Source of the DNA: an uncultured archaeon
GTDB lineage: Archaea > Asgardarchaeota > Lokiarchaeia > Sigyniarchaeales > Promethearchaeaceae
Reading direction: 5' to 3'
Assembly (NCBI GenBank): GCA_964426185.1
Contig: CAYRPF010000110.1
Coordinates: 1 to 7,326 of the forward strand
DNA length: 7,326 bases
Shown here: one piece after another, positions 76 through 7,326 of the stretch
Layout of the letters: each line of letters begins with the position of its first letter
Numbering within the stretch: position 1 is the first letter of the stretch
Translations under genes and position numbers: made by a program
The notes under the pieces: generated by a model
What the model was told of the DNA's origin: nothing
The model's input: the letters and a program-made list of their open reading frames with translations, nothing else
The model's database searches: none

Positions 76-366
76 ATGCTTAAAGCAGTAGTTTTAACGA
101 AAATTGCACAGTTTAAAGCATTAACTTATCCAGATCGAGATCTTACCCGTGAGATCTTACAAATACTTGGAATTTATGATATTGTCGATTTAGAGTTTAG
201 TTTGAATAAGGTCCCACCTCAAGAGAGGCTCGCAGCAATAAAAATGGTAGAAAAACATCTTGACGACCTTCTCAGTGGTGATGAAAAAAAATGGGCAGAA
301 GCAAAGGATAATCTGAAGCAATTCTACTTCCAAATTGATGAAATGGATGAAGAAGGCTATCTTTAA
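76..366 (+). CDS. Hypothetical protein, 96 aa, helical-looking with an acidic C-terminus
   Basis: ATG at 76 preceded by GGTGA (61-65), an archaeal-type SD motif; natural-looking composition; converges on the nifU-like gene. No family motif recognised. Confidence 0.75.
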   Translation: MLKAVVLTKIAQFKALTYPDRDLTREILQILGIYDIVDLEFSLNKVPPQERLAAIKMVEKHLDDLLSGDEKKWAEAKDNLKQFYFQIDEMDEEGYL

Positions 367-391
367 GTTCATCCTTCATTTCATCCTTCAA
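337..391. repeat. Inverted repeat plus 12-bp tandem duplication at the convergent gene junction; possible terminator structure
   Basis: GATGAAATG-GATGAA (337-351) pairs with TTCATC-(CTT)-CATTTCATC (368-385); TTCATCCTTCAT/TTCATCCTTCAA is a tandem repeat at 368-379 and 380-391. Confidence 0.5.
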
Positions 392-876
392 TTTCTTCTT
401 TGATATTTATCCAAGGTCAACTGCAAGGCTGTAACTGCTAATGTTGCACAATGCCAATCTTCTTGTGGAAATTTACCCAAAGCTTCCAGCACCTTCTTAT
501 CAGTTATCTGTCGAACTTTTTCAAGCGGTAGATTTTCTACCAACATTGCTGTTTGAGAAGATGCAATTGATGCAGTAGTGCACCCATCTGTGGTATAAAA
601 TGCATTCTTGAGGATACCATCATGAATATCTAAATACCACCTAACAGAGTCCCCACAAGGGCCCCGCCATTCTTTTTGAACCATTTTATCTGCATTTTCT
701 GGAATTTGATAATGATAGGGATGATCAGCCAAGAAGAGTGCATGCGGGGAGAAATCCGCTTGATTTTTGGCCTCTATCTCCGCTTCTAAGCAAGAGATAA
801 AATCCTCAAATTCATTTAACTTTTTATTTACCGATGAGCTTGATTGAGGTGATTCATTAGACTTTTTCTCATTCAT
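388..876 (-). CDS. NifU/IscU-like Fe-S cluster scaffold protein (NifU_N domain) with N-terminal extension
   Basis: Three canonical U-type Cys motifs: GPCGD, TDGCTTASIASS, HCATLA. The LPPVK HscA-binding motif is replaced by FPQED. Confidence 0.9.
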   Translation of the reverse strand: MNEKKSNESPQSSSSVNKKLNEFEDFISCLEAEIEAKNQADFSPHALFLADHPYHYQIPENADKMVQKEWRGPCGDSVRWYLDIHDGILKNAFYTTDGCTTASIASSQTAMLVENLPLEKVRQITDKKVLEALGKFPQEDWHCATLAVTALQLTLDKYQRRN

Positions 877-2295: not shown

Positions 2296-2520
2296 ATGGC
2301 AGATTTTACTGAAGATTTTAAAGGGCTCAAATGCCCCATGCCTGTTTTGAAAGCGAAAAAGGTGATTAAGAAAATGGCTCCTGGTCAGACTTTTGAGTTT
2401 GTGGCTGATGATAGTGGTGCGAAAGTGGATATTCCTCCCTTACTGAATAAAACTGGATGCACTTTAGTAGAAATGAAAGAAGAAAACGGGATATATACCT
2501 TTTTAATCAAAAAAGATTAG
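2296..2520 (+). CDS. tusA: TusA/SirA family sulfur carrier protein, 74 aa
   Basis: DFKGLKCPMPVL contains the CPxP motif (Cys13), followed by MAPGQTFEFVADDSGAKVDIP. The start is more likely ATG 2296 (GTGA upstream) than 2221, because the longer N-terminus overlaps the regulatory region and exceeds the usual family length. Confidence 0.93.
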   Translation: MADFTEDFKGLKCPMPVLKAKKVIKKMAPGQTFEFVADDSGAKVDIPPLLNKTGCTLVEMKEENGIYTFLIKKD

Positions 2521-2574
2521 AGTTGTGATTATTTCTGTCTTTTTTATTGATGAAATTTGGAGAGAATTTATAAA

Positions 2575-2928
2575 ATGAAACTAGCATTTTGCGTTATGAC
2601 AGAATTCCTCAAATTCCAACCAGTTTATACTATGATTAATCTTATTAAAGCCGCGCAAGAAAAGAATCATGAAATTTTAGGGATATTCTTCTTTGGAAGC
2701 GGAGTATTAAATATTCAAAAAGGTGCTCATTTAGGCAAAAATACTCGGAATATTTCGGCTGAGTTGGAGAATTTAGGAGTTTCCATTGTTGCATGTCAAA
2801 CTTGGGCAGATAACATGGCCATATTTAAGGAAAACGCCATTGAAGGCGCAGATATCACCGGATTAGGTGAATTATCAAATATGACAGCAGAAGCGGATAA
2901 AGTAATTGTATTCGGTTCTCATGCATAG
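2575..2928 (+). CDS. dsrE: DsrE/TusD-like sulfur relay subunit, 117 aa
   Basis: GIFFFGSGV, IVACQTWA (Cys74, equivalent to the active Cys78 of TusD/DsrE), GADITGLGELS..ADKVIVF. ATG 2575 preceded by GGAGA; first of three DsrEFH-like genes. Confidence 0.85.
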   Translation: MKLAFCVMTEFLKFQPVYTMINLIKAAQEKNHEILGIFFFGSGVLNIQKGAHLGKNTRNISAELENLGVSIVACQTWADNMAIFKENAIEGADITGLGELSNMTAEADKVIVFGSHA

Positions 2929-2950
2929 GAAATGATTAGGAGGTAGAAAA

Positions 2951-3316
2951 ATGGAATCAGTATTAATTTTATGCGAAAAAGGACCCTTTGGGACTAATTC
3001 TGGTATGGAATCGATCCGATTGGGAGCAGGTTATATTGCGTTAGGTGAGGACCTTGATTGTAAGCTGGTATTTTACGGCGCCGGGGTACTTAACCTATTG
3101 AAAAACCTCGACCCAAGTCAAATCGGCATGGATCTGATGGATGAAGGAATTGAAATGGCGGATTTATCCGAGTTACCTATTGTTTTGGTAAATGAAGATT
3201 TAGAGCAATTTGGATACACTCAAGCTGATCTGATTGAATATGAATCCCTAGAATTGGTAAGTAGGGCAGAACTTCCAAGTATTTTGAAGGAGTTTGACAT
3301 GGTATTCCGGATGTGA
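2951..3316 (+). CDS. dsrF: DsrF/TusC-like subunit
   Basis: KGPFGTNSGMESIRL, LVFYGAGVLNLLKNLDP, VNEDLEQFG, FDMVF; strong SD AGGAGGT at 2938-2944; lies between dsrE and dsrH. Confidence 0.85.
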   Translation: MESVLILCEKGPFGTNSGMESIRLGAGYIALGEDLDCKLVFYGAGVLNLLKNLDPSQIGMDLMDEGIEMADLSELPIVLVNEDLEQFGYTQADLIEYESLELVSRAELPSILKEFDMVFRM

Positions 3317-3342
3317 TATTGGAACAAAAGGAGGAAAAAATC

Positions 3343-3663
3343 ATGGAACACTTAATTTTATATGGTTATGCAGGAATGGAGAAACAAAAATTGCAAGATC
3401 TACAAATGTTTACCGAAAGCTGGGAAGATTGCCACTTGGTATTAATGCAAGATGCTGTTGTCGGAACCACAACTGGTGAAAATGAATCCACGGCTGTATT
3501 AGAAAAATTCAAGAACAACGGATGGAAAATTTATGCTCTCCAGGAAGATGTTATCGCACGAGGGTTACCTTTAGAAAAGATCAAATATTTTATTGAACCC
3601 ATCACCTATTATGGCGTTATTGATCTTATCACAGATTCAAAGCAATTAATCTCATGGTTATAA
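3343..3663 (+). CDS. dsrH: DsrH/TusB-like subunit, 106 aa
   Basis: LVLMQDAV, IYALQEDVIARG, ITYYGVIDLI..ISW are the DsrH/TusB signatures; AAGGAGG upstream of ATG 3343 favours this start over GTG 3313. Confidence 0.88.
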   Translation: MEHLILYGYAGMEKQKLQDLQMFTESWEDCHLVLMQDAVVGTTTGENESTAVLEKFKNNGWKIYALQEDVIARGLPLEKIKYFIEPITYYGVIDLITDSKQLISWL

Positions 3664-3689
3664 GAGCAAATTTGGTGAATTTAGTTAAT

Positions 3690-4877
3690 TCAAGATGTTC
3701 TTTTTTTTGATTTTGATCTCAAATCTGCTACACATTTTTTCAAAGTGTTTTTTACATATTCTAATTGTTCACGAGTGTTATCCCTTCCCAAAGTCAATCG
3801 GATAGAACCCGCAGCCATTTCTTCTGATAACCCCATCGCAGTAAGAACATAAGATACATCATGAGATTTTGAATGACAAGCTGATCCCACAGATACGGCA
3901 ATATTATGATTATTCAAAGCTTGGAGCAATTCGCTGCCATCAATTCCTTCAAATCCCACATTTATATTAATTGAAACACGGTGTTTAACTCCACCGTTTA
4001 AATAACTCCCAGTAATTTCAGAAAGAATCCATCTAATCAAATCGTCTCTAAGAGATAATAAGCGAGAATTCTCTTCTGACATATTATTATAACATATTTC
4101 AACCGATTTAGCAAATCCAACAATATTTGCAACATTTTCGGTAGCTGAGCGAAATCCAAACTCTTGTCCACCTCCATAAGTAATAGGAATAATATATACC
4201 CCTCGAGCAGGATGTTTACCTCGATTGCGGATGAATAGCATTCCAATACCCTTTGGACCGTAGATTTTGTGTCCTGATGCTGAAAGTAAGTCGATTTTTT
4301 CTTGCTGTAAGTTGATGGGTAATTTTCCGAAAGCTTGGACCGCATCAGTATGCAAGATTATATTTCGTGTTGAAGTAATTCCTGCAATTTCTCGAATGGG
4401 TTGAATACTACCAATTTCATTGTTTGCATAAATAATTGAAACCAAAATTGTATCATCGCGGAGAAGCCGCTTAAATTCTTCCACAGAAACCAAACCTTCC
4501 GAATCGATAGATAGATAAGAAACCTCAAAACCCTCAAGTTGGAGTTTTCGGAAACAATTTCTTACGGCAGGATGCTCAATTGGGGTGGTTATCATATGTT
4601 TTCCAAATTTTTTCATTTTATGCGCCGTTCCCAAGATTGCAATATTATCCGCTTCGGTTCCACTTCCTGTAAAGATAATTTCCTCTGGTTTCGCTCCAAT
4701 ACATTCAGCTATTCGTGCACGAGAAGTTTCAATTGCTTTCCGAGTATATTTCCCCAAATTATGCATGGAAGAAGCGTTCCCAAAATGATTTTTAAGATAA
4801 GGCATCATTTCTGCCAAAACTTCGGGATCCAAAGGAGTGGTGGCAGCATGATCTAAGTAGATAAATTCACGCTCCAT
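3690..4877 (-). CDS. iscS: Cysteine desulfurase, group I (IscS/NifS-type), PLP-dependent
   Basis: IYLDHAATTP, FGNASSMH, IIFTGSGTEADN, IEHPAV, ANNEIG, HTDAVQAFGK, SGHKIYGPKGIG (PLP Lys), GGGQE, GSACHS (catalytic Cys), SIRLTLGR. Confidence 0.96.
   Translation of the reverse strand: MEREFIYLDHAATTPLDPEVLAEMMPYLKNHFGNASSMHNLGKYTRKAIETSRARIAECIGAKPEEIIFTGSGTEADNIAILGTAHKMKKFGKHMITTPIEHPAVRNCFRKLQLEGFEVSYLSIDSEGLVSVEEFKRLLRDDTILVSIIYANNEIGSIQPIREIAGITSTRNIILHTDAVQAFGKLPINLQQEKIDLLSASGHKIYGPKGIGMLFIRNRGKHPARGVYIIPITYGGGQEFGFRSATENVANIVGFAKSVEICYNNMSEENSRLLSLRDDLIRWILSEITGSYLNGGVKHRVSININVGFEGIDGSELLQALNNHNIAVSVGSACHSKSHDVSYVLTAMGLSEEMAAGSIRLTLGRDNTREQLEYVKNTLKKCVADLRSKSKKRTS
3698..3716 (+). terminator. 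Oligo-T tract, candidate archaeal-type terminator of the tusA-dsrEFH transcript
   Basis: T8 run at 3701-3708, about 38 nt after the dsrH stop. It also encodes Lys codons at the 3' end of the opposite-strand desulfurase gene, so it may be coincidental. Confidence 0.35.
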
Positions 4878-4899
4878 ATAAGGAAGAAAATTAATGGTG

Positions 4900-4907
4900 T
4901 ATATAAA
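4900..4907 (-). promoter_or_regulatory. TATA-box candidate for iscS (probably leaderless transcript)
   Basis: Minus-strand TTTATATA begins 30 nt before the ATG at 4877; no SD motif upstream of the start. Confidence 0.5.
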
Positions 4908-4986
4908 GCAATGGGTAATATTACAAAAGATTGATTTTTAAAATAAAAATGCACATATATGCGGATATACGTATATATTCGATAAC

Positions 4987-5000
4987 CCGAAATTTTAAAG
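4987..5000 (+). promoter_or_regulatory. BRE/TATA candidate for the second tusA (probably leaderless transcript)
   Basis: CCGAAA-TTTTAAAG; the first T (4993) is 30 nt before the ATG at 5023. Confidence 0.5.
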
Positions 5001-5022
5001 TAAATAGAAAAGAATTTTACCC

Positions 5023-5322
5023 ATGGCAAAAGATCTGGAGATCTCGTCCCACTCGAAAAAAAATGATCGAGATGAGCGCGATTTAGATTGGGATAAACAA
5101 GGAAAGGAATTAGATTTACGCGGAGTACAATGTCCGATGACCTTCGTTTATACAAAAGTAACATTGGAAGAAATGTCACCAGGTGACTTACTTCGGTTGA
5201 TTCTCGATTTTCGCTCCGCTTTTACCAATGTGCCAAAAAATGTAGTAAAACAAAAATTGGGAAAAATTATTCATGAAATCGAACAAGATAATGTTAAAAC
5301 TATATGGATAGAACGAATTTAA
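5023..5322 (+). CDS. Second TusA/SirA family sulfur carrier with a charged N-terminal extension
   Basis: ELDLRGVQCPMTFVYTKVTLEEMSPGDLLRLILD..NVPK; CPxT variant motif (Cys37). Confidence 0.9.
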   Translation: MAKDLEISSHSKKNDRDERDLDWDKQGKELDLRGVQCPMTFVYTKVTLEEMSPGDLLRLILDFRSAFTNVPKNVVKQKLGKIIHEIEQDNVKTIWIERI

Positions 5323-5334
5323 CCTCTTATTTAG

Positions 5335-6156
5335 CTAATTACATTCATCATTCACGATATAATATTTTTCGGTCAGATAAAATGGCTCTTTGGGATTGCT
5401 ACATGCCGCACACGAAGGATTGCGCTTGATCGAAATAAAATCGAAAATATTTTCCGCCAAATCGAAAGTAAACAATCCATTTGTGAATTTTTGAGATTTT
5501 CCTATCAGTGTTTTTATCGCTTCATTTGCTTGGAGAATACCAGCAAAACTAGGGACAGTATTAATAACACCGGCGGCTGAACACGACATCGATTCATCAC
5601 CGGCAGATATAGTATGGAAAATGCAACGATAACAAGTGGTTTCTCCTGGATTCACCGAAATCAACTGCCCCATCCATTGAACAACGCCGGCTATGGTAAA
5701 GGGTATATTTAGATGAACGCATACATCATTTACCAAAAATTTAGTGGCAAAATTATCGCTAGCATCAATGACATAATCAGAACCTTTCAGAATTTCGGCA
5801 GAATTTTCTCGCGTAAGTAATTCTGGGAAGATTTCCAACTTAACATCTGGATTAATGGCTTTTACCTTATCGGCGATGCTGTCAACTTTCTTTCGACCCA
5901 CATCTGGTGTTAAGTGTAATGTTTGTCTTGGGAGATTAGATAAATCTACCAAATCCCCATCAATAACCTTAATGTGTCCGACTCCAGCCGATGCCAGCAT
6001 TTGAATCACGGGGCAGCCTAAACCACCAGCACCTACTACAGTTACGGTTGCATTCAGAAGTTTATTTACCCCTTCACTTCCAAAATCGGTTAAGATAATA
6101 TGACGGGAATATCGATGAACTTGGTCATCAGTTAATTTGTGGAAATTTTTCTTCAT
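5335..6156 (-). CDS. HesA/MoeB/ThiF family adenylyltransferase (E1-like), no rhodanese domain
   Basis: RYSRHIIL, VVGAGGLGCP, DGDLVDLSNLPRQ, DASDNF, Zn motifs CYRC and CAAC, conserved loop Cys in SCSAAGV, QANEAIK. Confidence 0.95.
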   Translation of the reverse strand: MKKNFHKLTDDQVHRYSRHIILTDFGSEGVNKLLNATVTVVGAGGLGCPVIQMLASAGVGHIKVIDGDLVDLSNLPRQTLHLTPDVGRKKVDSIADKVKAINPDVKLEIFPELLTRENSAEILKGSDYVIDASDNFATKFLVNDVCVHLNIPFTIAGVVQWMGQLISVNPGETTCYRCIFHTISAGDESMSCSAAGVINTVPSFAGILQANEAIKTLIGKSQKFTNGLFTFDLAENIFDFISIKRNPSCAACSNPKEPFYLTEKYYIVNDECN

Positions 6157-6329
6157 AAGTACAACTTATTCGGGAAAAATAAAAAAAATTAGTGTATTTT
6201 TAGTTATTATGCGAATTTTTTCATAAATACAACCGAATAAAAGGAATTCTGCCAATTTTCTTATTTTTTTAATTTTCTAAATTTTTAGGAACAAATATTT
6301 ATATATCCATTGTCAATAATAATAAGCAA

Positions 6330-6403
6330 GTACATTTGGCAATTTTATCTTATAGAACTGGATCAAATGTAATGTTAGAAATAGATTTATAGTACATTTG
6401 TTT
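6330..6403. promoter_or_regulatory. Triple-box operator candidate (31-bp period) upstream of dsrE2
   Basis: GTACATTTGGCA (6330-6341), GATCAAATGTAA (6361-6372), GTACATTTGTTT (6392-6403); TTTATA at 6386-6391 abuts box 3, and another TTTATATA lies at 6298-6305. Confidence 0.7.
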
Positions 6404-6443
6404 TTTATAGTAAAAAAATAGAACAGGAAAAAAGTGATGAATA

Positions 6444-6863
6444 ATGCCCAAAGTAATGAATTTTATTGTTTCCGAACAATCCTTTGAAAAATTCGGAATG
6501 ATGGTTATCCTTGGCACTACTGGTGCTGCCATGGAAACAAAGATGAATTTCTTTTTCACCTTTTGGGGTATCAATCTATTGAAAAAAAATTTCAAACCGA
6601 AAGTGGCGGGAATGCCGTTTCCTATGAAAGGAATGGCAGCGATGATGTTTAAAAAGAAATTAAAATCTTTCGGATACGAAGATATGTGGGAAATGGTTAA
6701 AGATGGAATTGAAGAAGGAAATATTAAACTCTATCCTTGCTCAATGACCATGGATTTAATGGGTGTGAAAAAGGAACAAATCCACAAATTCTGCGAAGAG
6801 CCTATCGGCGCTGCCAAGTTCATTGAAATGGCAGATGAAGCGGATAAGGTAATTTCCTTATAA
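6444..6863 (+). CDS. DsrE2-like (DsrE/DsrF/DrsH-like family) sulfur carrier protein
   Basis: TTGAAM, FFFTFWG, LYPCSMTMDLMG (conserved Cys99), GAAKFIEMA; GTGA upstream of the start. Confidence 0.9.
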   Translation: MPKVMNFIVSEQSFEKFGMMVILGTTGAAMETKMNFFFTFWGINLLKKNFKPKVAGMPFPMKGMAAMMFKKKLKSFGYEDMWEMVKDGIEEGNIKLYPCSMTMDLMGVKKEQIHKFCEEPIGAAKFIEMADEADKVISL

Positions 6864-6970: not shown

Positions 6971-7326
6971 ATGACAAATACAGCTAATTATCCAAAAAAA
7001 CATCAAGAAGTGGAATTAACTCAATTAGACAAACAAATTCTGCAGATTTTACAAGAAAATGGAAAAGCTTCTCTTCGGTCTATTGCCCAAAAATTAAATT
7101 CTTCCGTTTCCGCAGTGAAAAATCATGTAGATAAACTAACAGAAACAGGTGTAATCCAATCTTACACTGCATTGATTGATTGCTGCAAAATTGGATATAA
7201 AGAAATGCTCCTTTTATTTATTCGGGTGAGTAATTCCGTCCCAATAAGTGAAATTTTCGATAAATTGGCAAAAATCGATAAAATTAATGCAATATATCAA
7301 ATTTCGGGTACATACGCTATTTTCTG
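6971..7326 (+). CDS. Lrp/AsnC family transcriptional regulator, 3'-truncated by the window edge; not in the ORF track
   Basis: Manual translation: MTNTANYPKKHQEVELTQLDKQILQILQENGKASLRSIAQKLNSSVSAVKNHVDKLTETGVIQSYTALIDCCKIGYKEMLLLFIRVSNSVPISEIFDKLAKIDKINAIYQISGTYAIF... Classic Lrp HTH (LDKQILQILQENGK..LRSIAQKL..V..L...GVI..Y) plus the start of a RAM domain (YQISG). Confidence 0.92.
   Translation, partial: MTNTANYPKKHQEVELTQLDKQILQILQENGKASLRSIAQKLNSSVSAVKNHVDKLTETGVIQSYTALIDCCKIGYKEMLLLFIRVSNSVPISEIFDKLAKIDKINAIYQISGTYAIF

Follow-up and report, generated by a model that had tools for sequence, protein, structure and literature searches.

The DNA examined here is the whole of a 7326-base contig (C110, hereafter the window) from an Asgard archaeon of the Loki type, genus Candidatus Harpocratesius, and our subject is a sulfur-trafficking island at positions 2296-6863 that encodes TusA1, DsrE, DsrF, DsrH, an IscS/NifS-type cysteine desulfurase, a second TusA (TusA2), a ThiF/MoeB-type E1 enzyme, and DsrE2. 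We read this island as a union of two conserved Asgard modules for sulfur trafficking, a composite mechanism to which we give a probability of roughly 0.55. Module A, comprising TusA1-DsrE-DsrF-DsrH-DsrE2 and an adjoining Lrp regulator gene, would be the carrier half of an operon whose other half, just beyond the contig end, is predicted to encode HdrC-HdrB-HdrA-MvhD, a hydrogenase-small-subunit-like protein, a ferredoxin or an FrhB/GltD flavoprotein, and a third TusA (TusA3). Module B would consist of IscS-TusA2-E1. The nesting of one within the other occurs in two genomes only, and E1-TusA pairs lie apart from DsrEFH in most relatives; the island is therefore read as two joined modules and not as one linear relay.

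The host genome assembly (3.26 Mb, 155 contigs) is 92% complete. Its nearest relative is a congener, Ca. Harpocratesius repetitus FW102 (G210), whose genome is closed, and the DsrE-like protein of the window is 85% identical to an NCBI protein named Candidatus Harpocratesius sp.; the initial annotation of this DNA, which had called a probable archaeon, was right on this point. Gene identities were assigned from Pfam and NCBIfam profile searches, with all Pfam scores well over their cut-offs, and these bear out the inventory first proposed for the 4.6 kb (a desulfurase, two TusA proteins, DsrE/F/H, DsrE2, and a MoeB/ThiF enzyme) together with the statement that no TusE/DsrC, MnmA, DsrAB, or rhodanese gene lies within the window. 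Since the contig breaks off within the Lrp gene, an acceptor would lie beyond the sequence seen here. Direct observation covers, throughout what follows, the gene content, the conservation of cysteines, the synteny, and the phyletic spread. An assembly chimera was considered and is ruled out, both by the same gene order in closed FW102 and by independent Logan contigs that span the DsrH/IscS and TusA2/E1 junctions. These Logan contigs are of low depth, and one extends 535 bases beyond the 3' end of the window. The island genes and the regulator gene are as follows.

2296-2520, plus strand: TusA1, first gene of the conserved carrier operon (Pfam PF01206, 84 bits; CPMP motif)
2575-2928, plus strand: DsrE/TusD-like protein, 117 aa from the ATG at 2575 (Pfam PF02635; PDB 2hy5_A)
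2951-3316, plus strand: DsrF/TusC-like protein (Pfam PF02635; NCBIfam TusC/DsrF below cut-off; best PDB match 2hy5_B)
3343-3663, plus strand: DsrH/TusB-like protein, start set at the ATG that matches the 102-aa FW102 orthologue (Pfam PF04077; PDB 2d1p_C, 2hy5_C)
3690-4877, minus strand: IscS/NifS-type cysteine desulfurase, class-V aminotransferase (Pfam PF00266, 256 bits)
5023-5322, plus strand: TusA2, a variant TusA (Pfam PF01206, 53 bits; best NCBIfam match YedF-like, below cut-off)
5335-6156, minus strand: ThiF/MoeB/UbaA-type E1, 273 aa, without a rhodanese domain (Pfam PF00899, 251 bits)
6444-6863, plus strand: DsrE2-type carrier (DrsE_2, PF13686, 73 bits; NCBIfam DsrE2 58 bits, cut-off 210; PDB 2qs7)
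6971-7324, plus strand: Lrp/AsnC-type regulator, 118 of ~181 aa, cut by the contig end (Pfam HTH_24, HTH_AsnC)

The catalytic cysteines that the initial annotation had noted in TusA, DsrE, DsrE2, IscS, and E1 are all present and are conserved among Asgard orthologues. Cys13 in the CPMP motif of TusA1 is unchanged across 17/17 orthologues, and the TusA1 gene stands upstream of DsrE wherever a type-A locus (one carrying TusA1-DsrEFH-DsrE2) has enough sequence to show it. DsrE, DsrF, and DsrH are encoded by three consecutive paralogous genes, each of which best matches its own chain (A, B, or C) of the Allochromatium vinosum DsrEFH structure (PDB 2HY5), with NCBIfam equivalog scores for the trio under their cut-offs (41.5 versus 89.25, 34.9 versus 94.15, and 49.0 versus 49.2 bits). 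The DsrE cysteine, in the sequence SIVAC, aligns with DsrE Cys78 of 2HY5 (VVC in 2hy5_A) and is invariant in all 24 Asgard orthologues. DsrH has no conserved cysteine among 17 orthologues: the position of A. vinosum DsrH Cys20 is occupied by Leu, and the protein's own cysteine is kept in 3 of the 17. DsrE2 Cys99 is invariant (11/11 orthologues), and the DsrE2 gene in relatives directly precedes HdrC or Lrp-HdrC.

The three genes between DsrH and DsrE2 lie on mixed strands, with IscS and E1 on the minus strand and TusA2 on the plus strand. The desulfurase, which belongs to this genus-specific insert, is one of three paralogues in the genome (the others are on C37 and C111) and retains the SGHK lysine (K204) and SACHS cysteine (C334); its NCBIfam scores are below the equivalog cut-offs for both NifS (464.7 versus 530.75 bits) and IscS (408.5 versus 643.2 bits). 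TusA2 forms a separate TusA clade in which the Cys-Pro is kept and CPMT replaces CPxP, with Cys37 invariant in 12/12 orthologues and the string CPMTFVYTK invariant in an alignment of 10. The E1 harbors a GxGxxG motif at 42-47, CxxC pairs at 175-178 and 249-252, and Cys192 in MSCSAAGV, which we take to be the position of E. coli MoeB Cys187; scores against the MoeB (258 versus 449), UbaA (243 versus 450), and ThiF (236 versus 275 bits) models are all under the equivalog cut-offs.

Carrier genes and the Hdr operon

To place the island among its relatives, we surveyed synteny in 20-kb stretches around 60 Asgard DsrE-like genes and in ten metagenome contigs, with open reading frames (ORFs) of the related loci called mechanically and named by BLASTP against the window proteins and Pfam-checked references. 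The metagenome search, made with DsrE2, returned these ten further type-A contigs and no same-species contig that would extend the window. Related genomes are not independent samples, and all counts are descriptive. Two modules emerge across ~90 related loci. In FW102 the order is TusA1-DsrEFH-IscS-TusA2-E1-DsrE2-Lrp-HdrC-HdrB-HdrA-MvhD-q6-ferredoxin-TusA3-DsrE-like, identical to the window as far as Lrp, where the 181-aa FW102 orthologue is followed by HdrC-HdrB-HdrA-MvhD. The type-A carrier set is found in 19 genome loci of two families, and all of those with sequence beyond DsrE2 run into Hdr; eight of the ten metagenome contigs likewise pass from DsrE2 into Hdr, one stops at DsrE2, and one is ambiguous. 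A third family (L044, L045, and L096) has a rearranged form, Hdr...FrhB-TusA-DsrE-DsrF-DsrH.

The string that follows DsrE2 consists of HdrC (a 4Fe-4S dicluster protein), HdrB (two CCG domains), HdrA, MvhD (FlpD), a q6 protein of 411-430 aa with a hydrogenase-small-subunit (Oxidored_q6) domain, an FrhB/GltD-type flavoprotein, and a third TusA. The linked HdrA, 646-676 aa long in this string, is of the methanogen type (650-680 aa), with MvhD next. Nearly all type-A loci have an Lrp gene next to the carriers, placed divergently at the front in the sister family (f2) and between DsrE2 and HdrC in the window's family. This regulator suggests control by amino-acid or sulfur status. One locus of a Promethearchaeum sp. 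(L043, genome G285) carries HdrB-HdrC on one side of the carrier operon and HdrC-HdrB-HdrA-MvhD on the other.

From homology and gene order we predict the sulfur transfers, which way the Hdr reaction runs, and what the E1 acts on in this genome. For module A, we propose that the carriers would hold sulfane sulfur as cysteine persulfides (or thiosulfonates) and pass it among TusA1, the DsrE cysteine in DsrEFH, DsrE2, and TusA3. They would then present it to the CCG-domain subunit HdrB, where it would be reduced to sulfide with electrons arriving via HdrA, and the module would do so without DsrC/TusE.

E1-TusA2 pairs and their relation to DsrEFH

Orthologues of the window E1 occur throughout the order at 42-75% identity, nearly always with TusA2 as the next gene. 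TusA2 is found in 37 of 301 Asgard genomes, and E1 is adjacent in 29 of the 30 loci fetched, the other starting at a contig end; a scan of species-representative genomes gave 59 loci, in 57 of which E1 adjoins TusA2. The pair is present in Promethearchaeum syntrophicum MK-D1 and in Ca. Lokiarchaeum ossiferum, both of which are in culture, and in the sister family its two genes are co-directional and overlap. In the three genomes available for genus Harpocratesius, IscS-TusA2-E1 are adjacent in all three.

The neighbors of the pair in the 59 loci recur. The most frequent is a 95-103-aa ThiS-family (SAMP1/MoaD_arch-like) protein that ends in AGG (42/59) and scores slightly below the SAMP1 and archaeal MoaD cut-offs, followed by a cytoplasmic SsuA/NMT1-like protein (41/59), a cysteine-synthase-like enzyme (20/59), and a ThiI+NFACT-R_2 PP-loop protein (19/59). 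IscS and NifU_N are each found in 8 of the 59, and HdrA and/or MvhD in 8-12 of them. We propose that in module B IscS would draw sulfur from cysteine as a persulfide, which TusA2 would carry in the role played by the rhodanese domain of MoeZ/Uba4/MOCS3. The E1 would adenylate a ThiS/MoaD/SAMP-type Gly-Gly protein, which would then be converted to a thiocarboxylate. This could be used in tRNA thiolation by the ThiI-like PP-loop enzyme (an orthologue is encoded on C2), in thiol amino-acid synthesis by cysteine-synthase-like enzymes, or in pterin cofactor synthesis.

How the two modules relate is a separate matter. IscS-TusA2-E1 lies between DsrH and DsrE2 only in the window genome and in FW102. 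In the third Harpocratesius genome (L072, L192) IscS-TusA2-E1 is followed by other genes and not by DsrE2, and L043, from the closest genus apart from this one (Promethearchaeum sp.), has a carrier operon without the insert, its E1 pair lying elsewhere (L065). Family f2 has two copies of DsrEFH, which form sister clades in the DsrE tree; one is always in the Hdr operon, and the other, which lacks TusA1 and DsrE2, is E1-linked. This duplicated DsrEFH lies within ~8 kb of E1-TusA2 in ~7 of 15 sister-family loci (genomes G104, G065, G213, G228, G249, and G201). In G201 (L187), E1-TusA2, a ubiquitin-like (Ubl) carrier, an SsuA-like protein (p310), and DsrE-DsrF-DsrH form one contiguous 3.6-kb block with a 45-bp gap before DsrE. 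The single copy of the window branches outside the Hdr-linked and E1-linked copies. We suggest that DsrEFH probably also exchanges sulfur with the TusA2/E1 branch, since module B is nested in module A here and a DsrEFH paralogue lies beside module B in the sister family. That DsrEFH serves both branches, with roles split after the f2 duplication, is the simplest reading of evidence that is suggestive rather than strong. The initial annotation had named lack of conservation of the E1 linkage in relatives as an outcome that would count against it; the nesting is confined to the genus, and taken alone would be such an outcome, whereas the f2 DsrEFH paralogue near E1-TusA2 points the other way.

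Several further observations concern module B. The SsuA/NMT1_2-like protein (310 aa, e.g., L069:12279-13211) is nearly always encoded divergently to the SAMP1-like carrier gene and may be a candidate for an undescribed thiocarboxylate-using enzyme; it has no close orthologue in the window's family. Two contigs with bacterial labels, repeated here as given, carry related arrangements: L200 (Deltaproteobacteria) has IscS-E1-TusA2, the same triple as the window insert, and L198 (Balneolales) has a TusA2-type gene next to E1. A search for E1-TusA2 fusions turned up NifU_N-TusA2 fusion proteins instead (P0023-P0025). In P0023-P0026, an IscU-like NifU_N domain is joined, in proteins of 217 aa, to a TusA2-type domain with 62-64% identity to the window TusA2 and the same CPMTFVYTK string, and a 465-aa form among them carries two extra domains; by domain composition, these fusions appear to link the TusA2 clade to Fe-S scaffolds.

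Sulfur acceptors and donors in the genome and competing readings

A genome-wide search for acceptors, as the initial annotation had proposed, found none of DsrC/TusE, MnmA, or DsrAB, and a canonical TusE-MnmA or DsrABC set, which would have spoken against that annotation, is thus ruled out as the explanation of DsrEFH. No DsrC/TusE (PF04358) match turned up in the own genome or among 301 Asgard genomes, with the E. coli control positive; DsrE-like relatives are present in 126 of those 301 (42%). For MnmA, no canonical protein was found in the own genome, where PF03054 gave weak PP-loop matches of ≤37 bits over part of the model, the best being a 358-aa ThiI-like protein with an NFACT-R_2 domain (contig C2). 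NIR_SIR-type sulfite reductase (PF01077) had no match in the own genome, and DsrAB is therefore absent. Four TtuA/Ncs6-type ATP_bind_3 matches are above cut-off. ThiS/MoaD-family candidates number five by Pfam, with a sixth by a custom hidden Markov model (HMM); none is in the window, and those inspected all end in Gly-Gly or in Gly-Gly plus one residue. An HMM built from seven SAMP1-like carriers gave a best score of 37 bits in the own genome, for a MoaD-like gene beside an aldehyde:ferredoxin oxidoreductase (AOR) gene on C20. The only rhodanese domain of the genome is inside an 830-aa fusion protein. GcvH-family matches are two, one in an ordinary gcvPB-PA-H-T operon on C63 and the other on C15. 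A MoaD-MoaE molybdopterin synthase as the only sink is unsupported, no MoaE being found in the 92%-complete genome.

Some of these results weigh against the two-module reading. The Hdr genes are not on the window contig, and a search of the own assembly with the FW102 Hdr set and the Lrp C-terminus found only paralogues at 42-48% identity and no close orthologue, with best matches to FW102 Hdr (42-45% identical) on C68, C38, and C88; with the contig breaking off in Lrp and the corresponding Hdr set unassembled, the Hdr linkage in this organism is taken from the congener. Outside the order, TusA-DsrEFH-DsrE2 occurs without Hdr nearby (families f5, f15, f18, f21, f23, and f29). That a persulfide may serve as the high-potential acceptor of a bifurcating Hdr is a thermodynamic assumption. 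On the side of module B, no SAMP1-like orthologue lies next to E1 in the window's family, and the five or six ThiS-family candidates of the own genome lie elsewhere, four by AOR genes and with no MoaE. Only 6 of the 59 species loci have DsrEFH close to the E1 pair, and no RNA sequencing run is listed as containing the stretch.

If modules A and B were functionally independent, DsrEFH would serve Hdr only, TusA2 alone would supply E1, and their proximity would reflect clustering of sulfur genes under shared regulation; we regard this, the main rival, as unlikely, if deserving of real weight. It would fit the 53 of 59 species loci in which no DsrEFH lies within 6 kb of E1-TusA2, the separate location of the pair in MK-D1, L. 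ossiferum, and G285, and the third Harpocratesius genome, where DsrE2 does not follow the triple. The mixed strands of IscS, TusA2, and E1 likewise mean that these genes are not on one transcript with DsrEFH. However, DsrEFH and E1 came to lie close together in at least three genera, from two families, and in varied arrangements, one of which is the tight, co-directional p310-DsrE-DsrF-DsrH with its 45-bp gap, and by our own estimate two given genes would fall within 10 kb of each other by chance in ~0.6% of genomes of 3.5 Mb. The proposal of the initial annotation, taken literally, is a single linear relay IscS->TusA->DsrEFH->DsrE2->E1-activated carrier with no Hdr role. It draws on the presence of all parts, with the needed cysteines, in 4.6 kb, on the absence of DsrC/TusE, DsrAB (hence a DsrABC set), and canonical MnmA from the genome, and on the independent recurrence of the DsrEFH-E1 link in some relatives. 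This single relay is improbable: TusA-DsrEFH-DsrE2 is in relatives the front half of an HdrCBA-MvhD operon, with Hdr following in every type-A locus that extends far enough, the congener included, and most E1-TusA pairs lie apart from DsrEFH and beside a SAMP1/MoaD-like carrier. Moreover, IscS joins the cluster only in this genus, and DsrE2 accompanies the E1 pair in 1 of 59 loci and never outside this genus.

Two further readings change the chemistry. The carriers might traffic selenium, with the NifS-like enzyme as a selenocysteine lyase and TusA/DsrE delivering Se either to selenophosphate synthetase or to Hdr/Mvh subunits that contain Sec. In NCBIfam, TusA2 scores best against a YedF-like selenium-metabolism protein, far below cut-off (36.7 versus 79 bits), and in Methanococcus maripaludis TusA/TusD transcripts rise 4.5 log2-fold on Se depletion (PMC11097638). 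We consider this very unlikely, as the recurring partners (Hdr, E1, a Gly-Gly carrier, and a PP-loop thiolase) point to sulfur chemistry, and no SelD, SelA/B, or YedE was recognized in the ~150 loci examined, no family search having been aimed at them. More remote still is an oxidative system of the sHdr type, in which carriers would deliver sulfane sulfur to an Hdr-like complex for oxidation to sulfite. TusA and DsrE-family carriers are reported always to accompany sHdr systems (PMC11094781), as they do Hdr here, but the linked HdrA, of methanogen type, has MvhD after it, the loci showed no gene for a lipoate-binding protein, and the organism's lineage is anaerobic and fermentative. An sHdr/LbpA system was rejected on the HdrA type and MvhD and on the placement of one of the two GcvH-family matches in the normal glycine-cleavage operon on C63.

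Precedents, significance, and further loci

Compared with the E. coli TusA-TusBCD-TusE-MnmA relay (PDB 2D1P) and A. vinosum DsrEFH-DsrC (2HY5), the window system is alike in the order of the trio, the DsrE/TusD cysteine, the upstream TusA, and the nearby desulfurase; it differs in having no DsrC/TusE, canonical MnmA, DsrAB, or DsrH Cys20, and its conserved neighbors are HdrCBA-MvhD or E1. Set against the carrier-linked HdrABC-MvhD operon of Lokiarchaeia, the window has the front half, TusA-DsrEFH-DsrE2-Lrp, and the congener has the remainder in the same order. Here, though, Lrp separates DsrE2 from HdrC and is on the same strand, IscS-TusA2-E1 is inserted between DsrH and DsrE2, and the electron-input arm of the congener is a 142-aa ferredoxin and not the 822-aa FrhB/GltD fusion. 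Reference enzymes for the Hdr part are the methanogen MvhADG-HdrABC and Elp-HdrABC (PMC12350162), and an Hdr that works by way of persulfides carried on TusA and DsrE has been sketched for another Asgard archaeon in a 2025 preprint (bioRxiv 10.1101/2025.07.22.663070). The sHdr-LbpA systems with TusA/DsrE3 of Hyphomicrobium and Metallosphaera (PMC11094781, PMC4175335) resemble the Asgard loci in placing TusA/DsrE carriers beside an Hdr-type complex. The Hdr here is instead of the methanogen type with MvhD and not sHdrC1B1AHC2B2, no LbpA gene was seen in the loci, a full DsrEFH replaces DsrE3, and the reductive direction is more likely.

For module B, Iyer, Burroughs, and Aravind described in 2006 a rhodanese-less E1 that is always found with SirA (TusA) in bacterial sulfur-assimilation operons, along with a ThiS/MoaD-like carrier (PMC1779556, row 4e). 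The Asgard module shares the rhodanese-less E1 and its TusA-family partner, to which relatives add a Gly-Gly carrier plus either a PP-loop thiolase or an enzyme resembling cysteine synthase, with a desulfurase as the source. It differs from those operons in lacking the JAMM peptidase, sulfite reductase, and sulfate-activation genes, in that TusA2 belongs to a distinct CPMT clade that is elsewhere fused to NifU_N, and in that the carrier gene is not adjacent in this genus; the PP-loop partner has an NFACT-R_2 domain and matched no equivalog model. Thermus TtuA-TtuB-TtuC-TtuD and eukaryotic Nfs1-Tum1-Uba4-Urm1-Ncs6 follow a functionally analogous logic, with TusA here in place of rhodanese. Each module has precedent. 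What is particular here is that the modules are merged in Harpocratesius, that the E1-TusA2(CPMT)-carrier module is so large and regular in Lokiarchaeia, that a DsrEFH paralogue repeatedly lies close to E1-TusA2 in independent arrangements, and that DsrC/TusE is wholly lacking from a phylum in which 42% of sampled genomes have a DsrE-like gene.

These findings bear on two questions. As to the substrate of HdrABC in non-methanogenic archaea, protein-bound sulfane sulfur is indicated by the five or six carriers of cysteine persulfide that accompany Hdr, with DsrC lacking. As to the sulfur source of archaeal SAMP/Urm1-type thiocarboxylates, for which a 2017 review lists the donor to SAMP/UbaA as "S-donor?" (PMC5372739), the special TusA that almost invariably accompanies a rhodanese-less E1 offers a specific candidate, next to which this genus and one bacterial-labeled contig also encode a cysteine desulfurase. 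A bolder and rather doubtful extension is that DsrEFH, with no DsrC/TusE, might act in Lokiarchaeia as a two-way persulfide hub, delivering directly to the HdrB active site and via the CPMT TusA to an E1-bound Ubl protein. If so, the "heterodisulfide" of Asgard Hdr would be a carrier-protein persulfide, the sulfur donor of the archaeal SAMP/UbaA pathway would be identified, and energy metabolism would be connected with thiolation of the Urm1 kind in those archaea most closely related to eukaryotes. Harpocratesius, with its merged modules, is a natural place to ask about shared carriers.

Other sulfur loci of the genome were noted in passing. The 830-aa fusion (C21:28833-31325, minus strand) has the N-terminus of a pyridine-nucleotide disulfide reductase together with the rhodanese domain and, at the C-terminus, a part resembling DsrE2 (32% identical to the window DsrE2); it looks like a CoA-disulfide/persulfide reductase fusion. 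A second carrier cluster (C111:197-2907, minus strand) comprises a TusA (CPEP), a 125-aa DsrE-like protein, IscS, and a 267-aa NifU; the counterpart of this four-gene set in Ca. Lokiarchaeum ossiferum directly adjoins E1-TusA2 and a PP-loop gene (L066, L193). At C48:18958-23352 a LysR-type regulator, two half-size YeeE/YedE (Sulf_transp) genes, a 75-aa TusA-like CPFC protein, and two small proteins form a set that resembles a TsuA/TsuB thiosulfate-uptake pair. The four MoaD/ThiS-like Gly-Gly genes that adjoin AOR-like genes are at C7:45125-45322, C75:6165-6509, C22:17935-18306, and C20:22539-22823. Six extra bases (CTGTGC), inserted in frame within the DsrH-like gene at window position 3472, occur in a single Logan contig of sediment-metagenome run X4 and represent a low-depth strain variant.

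Upstream of the island, the window carries three more genes.

76-366, plus strand: unassigned 96-aa ORF, no Pfam or NCBIfam match
388-876, minus strand: IscU-like NifU_N protein, 162 aa, three scaffold cysteines (Pfam PF01592, 61 bits)
955-2130: nicotinate phosphoribosyltransferase (Pfam/NCBIfam)

The NifU_N gene is also kept beside the island in FW102, and its product is a possible accessory, as TusA2-type domains are fused to NifU_N elsewhere. The 96-aa ORF has a 76% identical counterpart at the same position in Ca. Harpocratesius repetitus.

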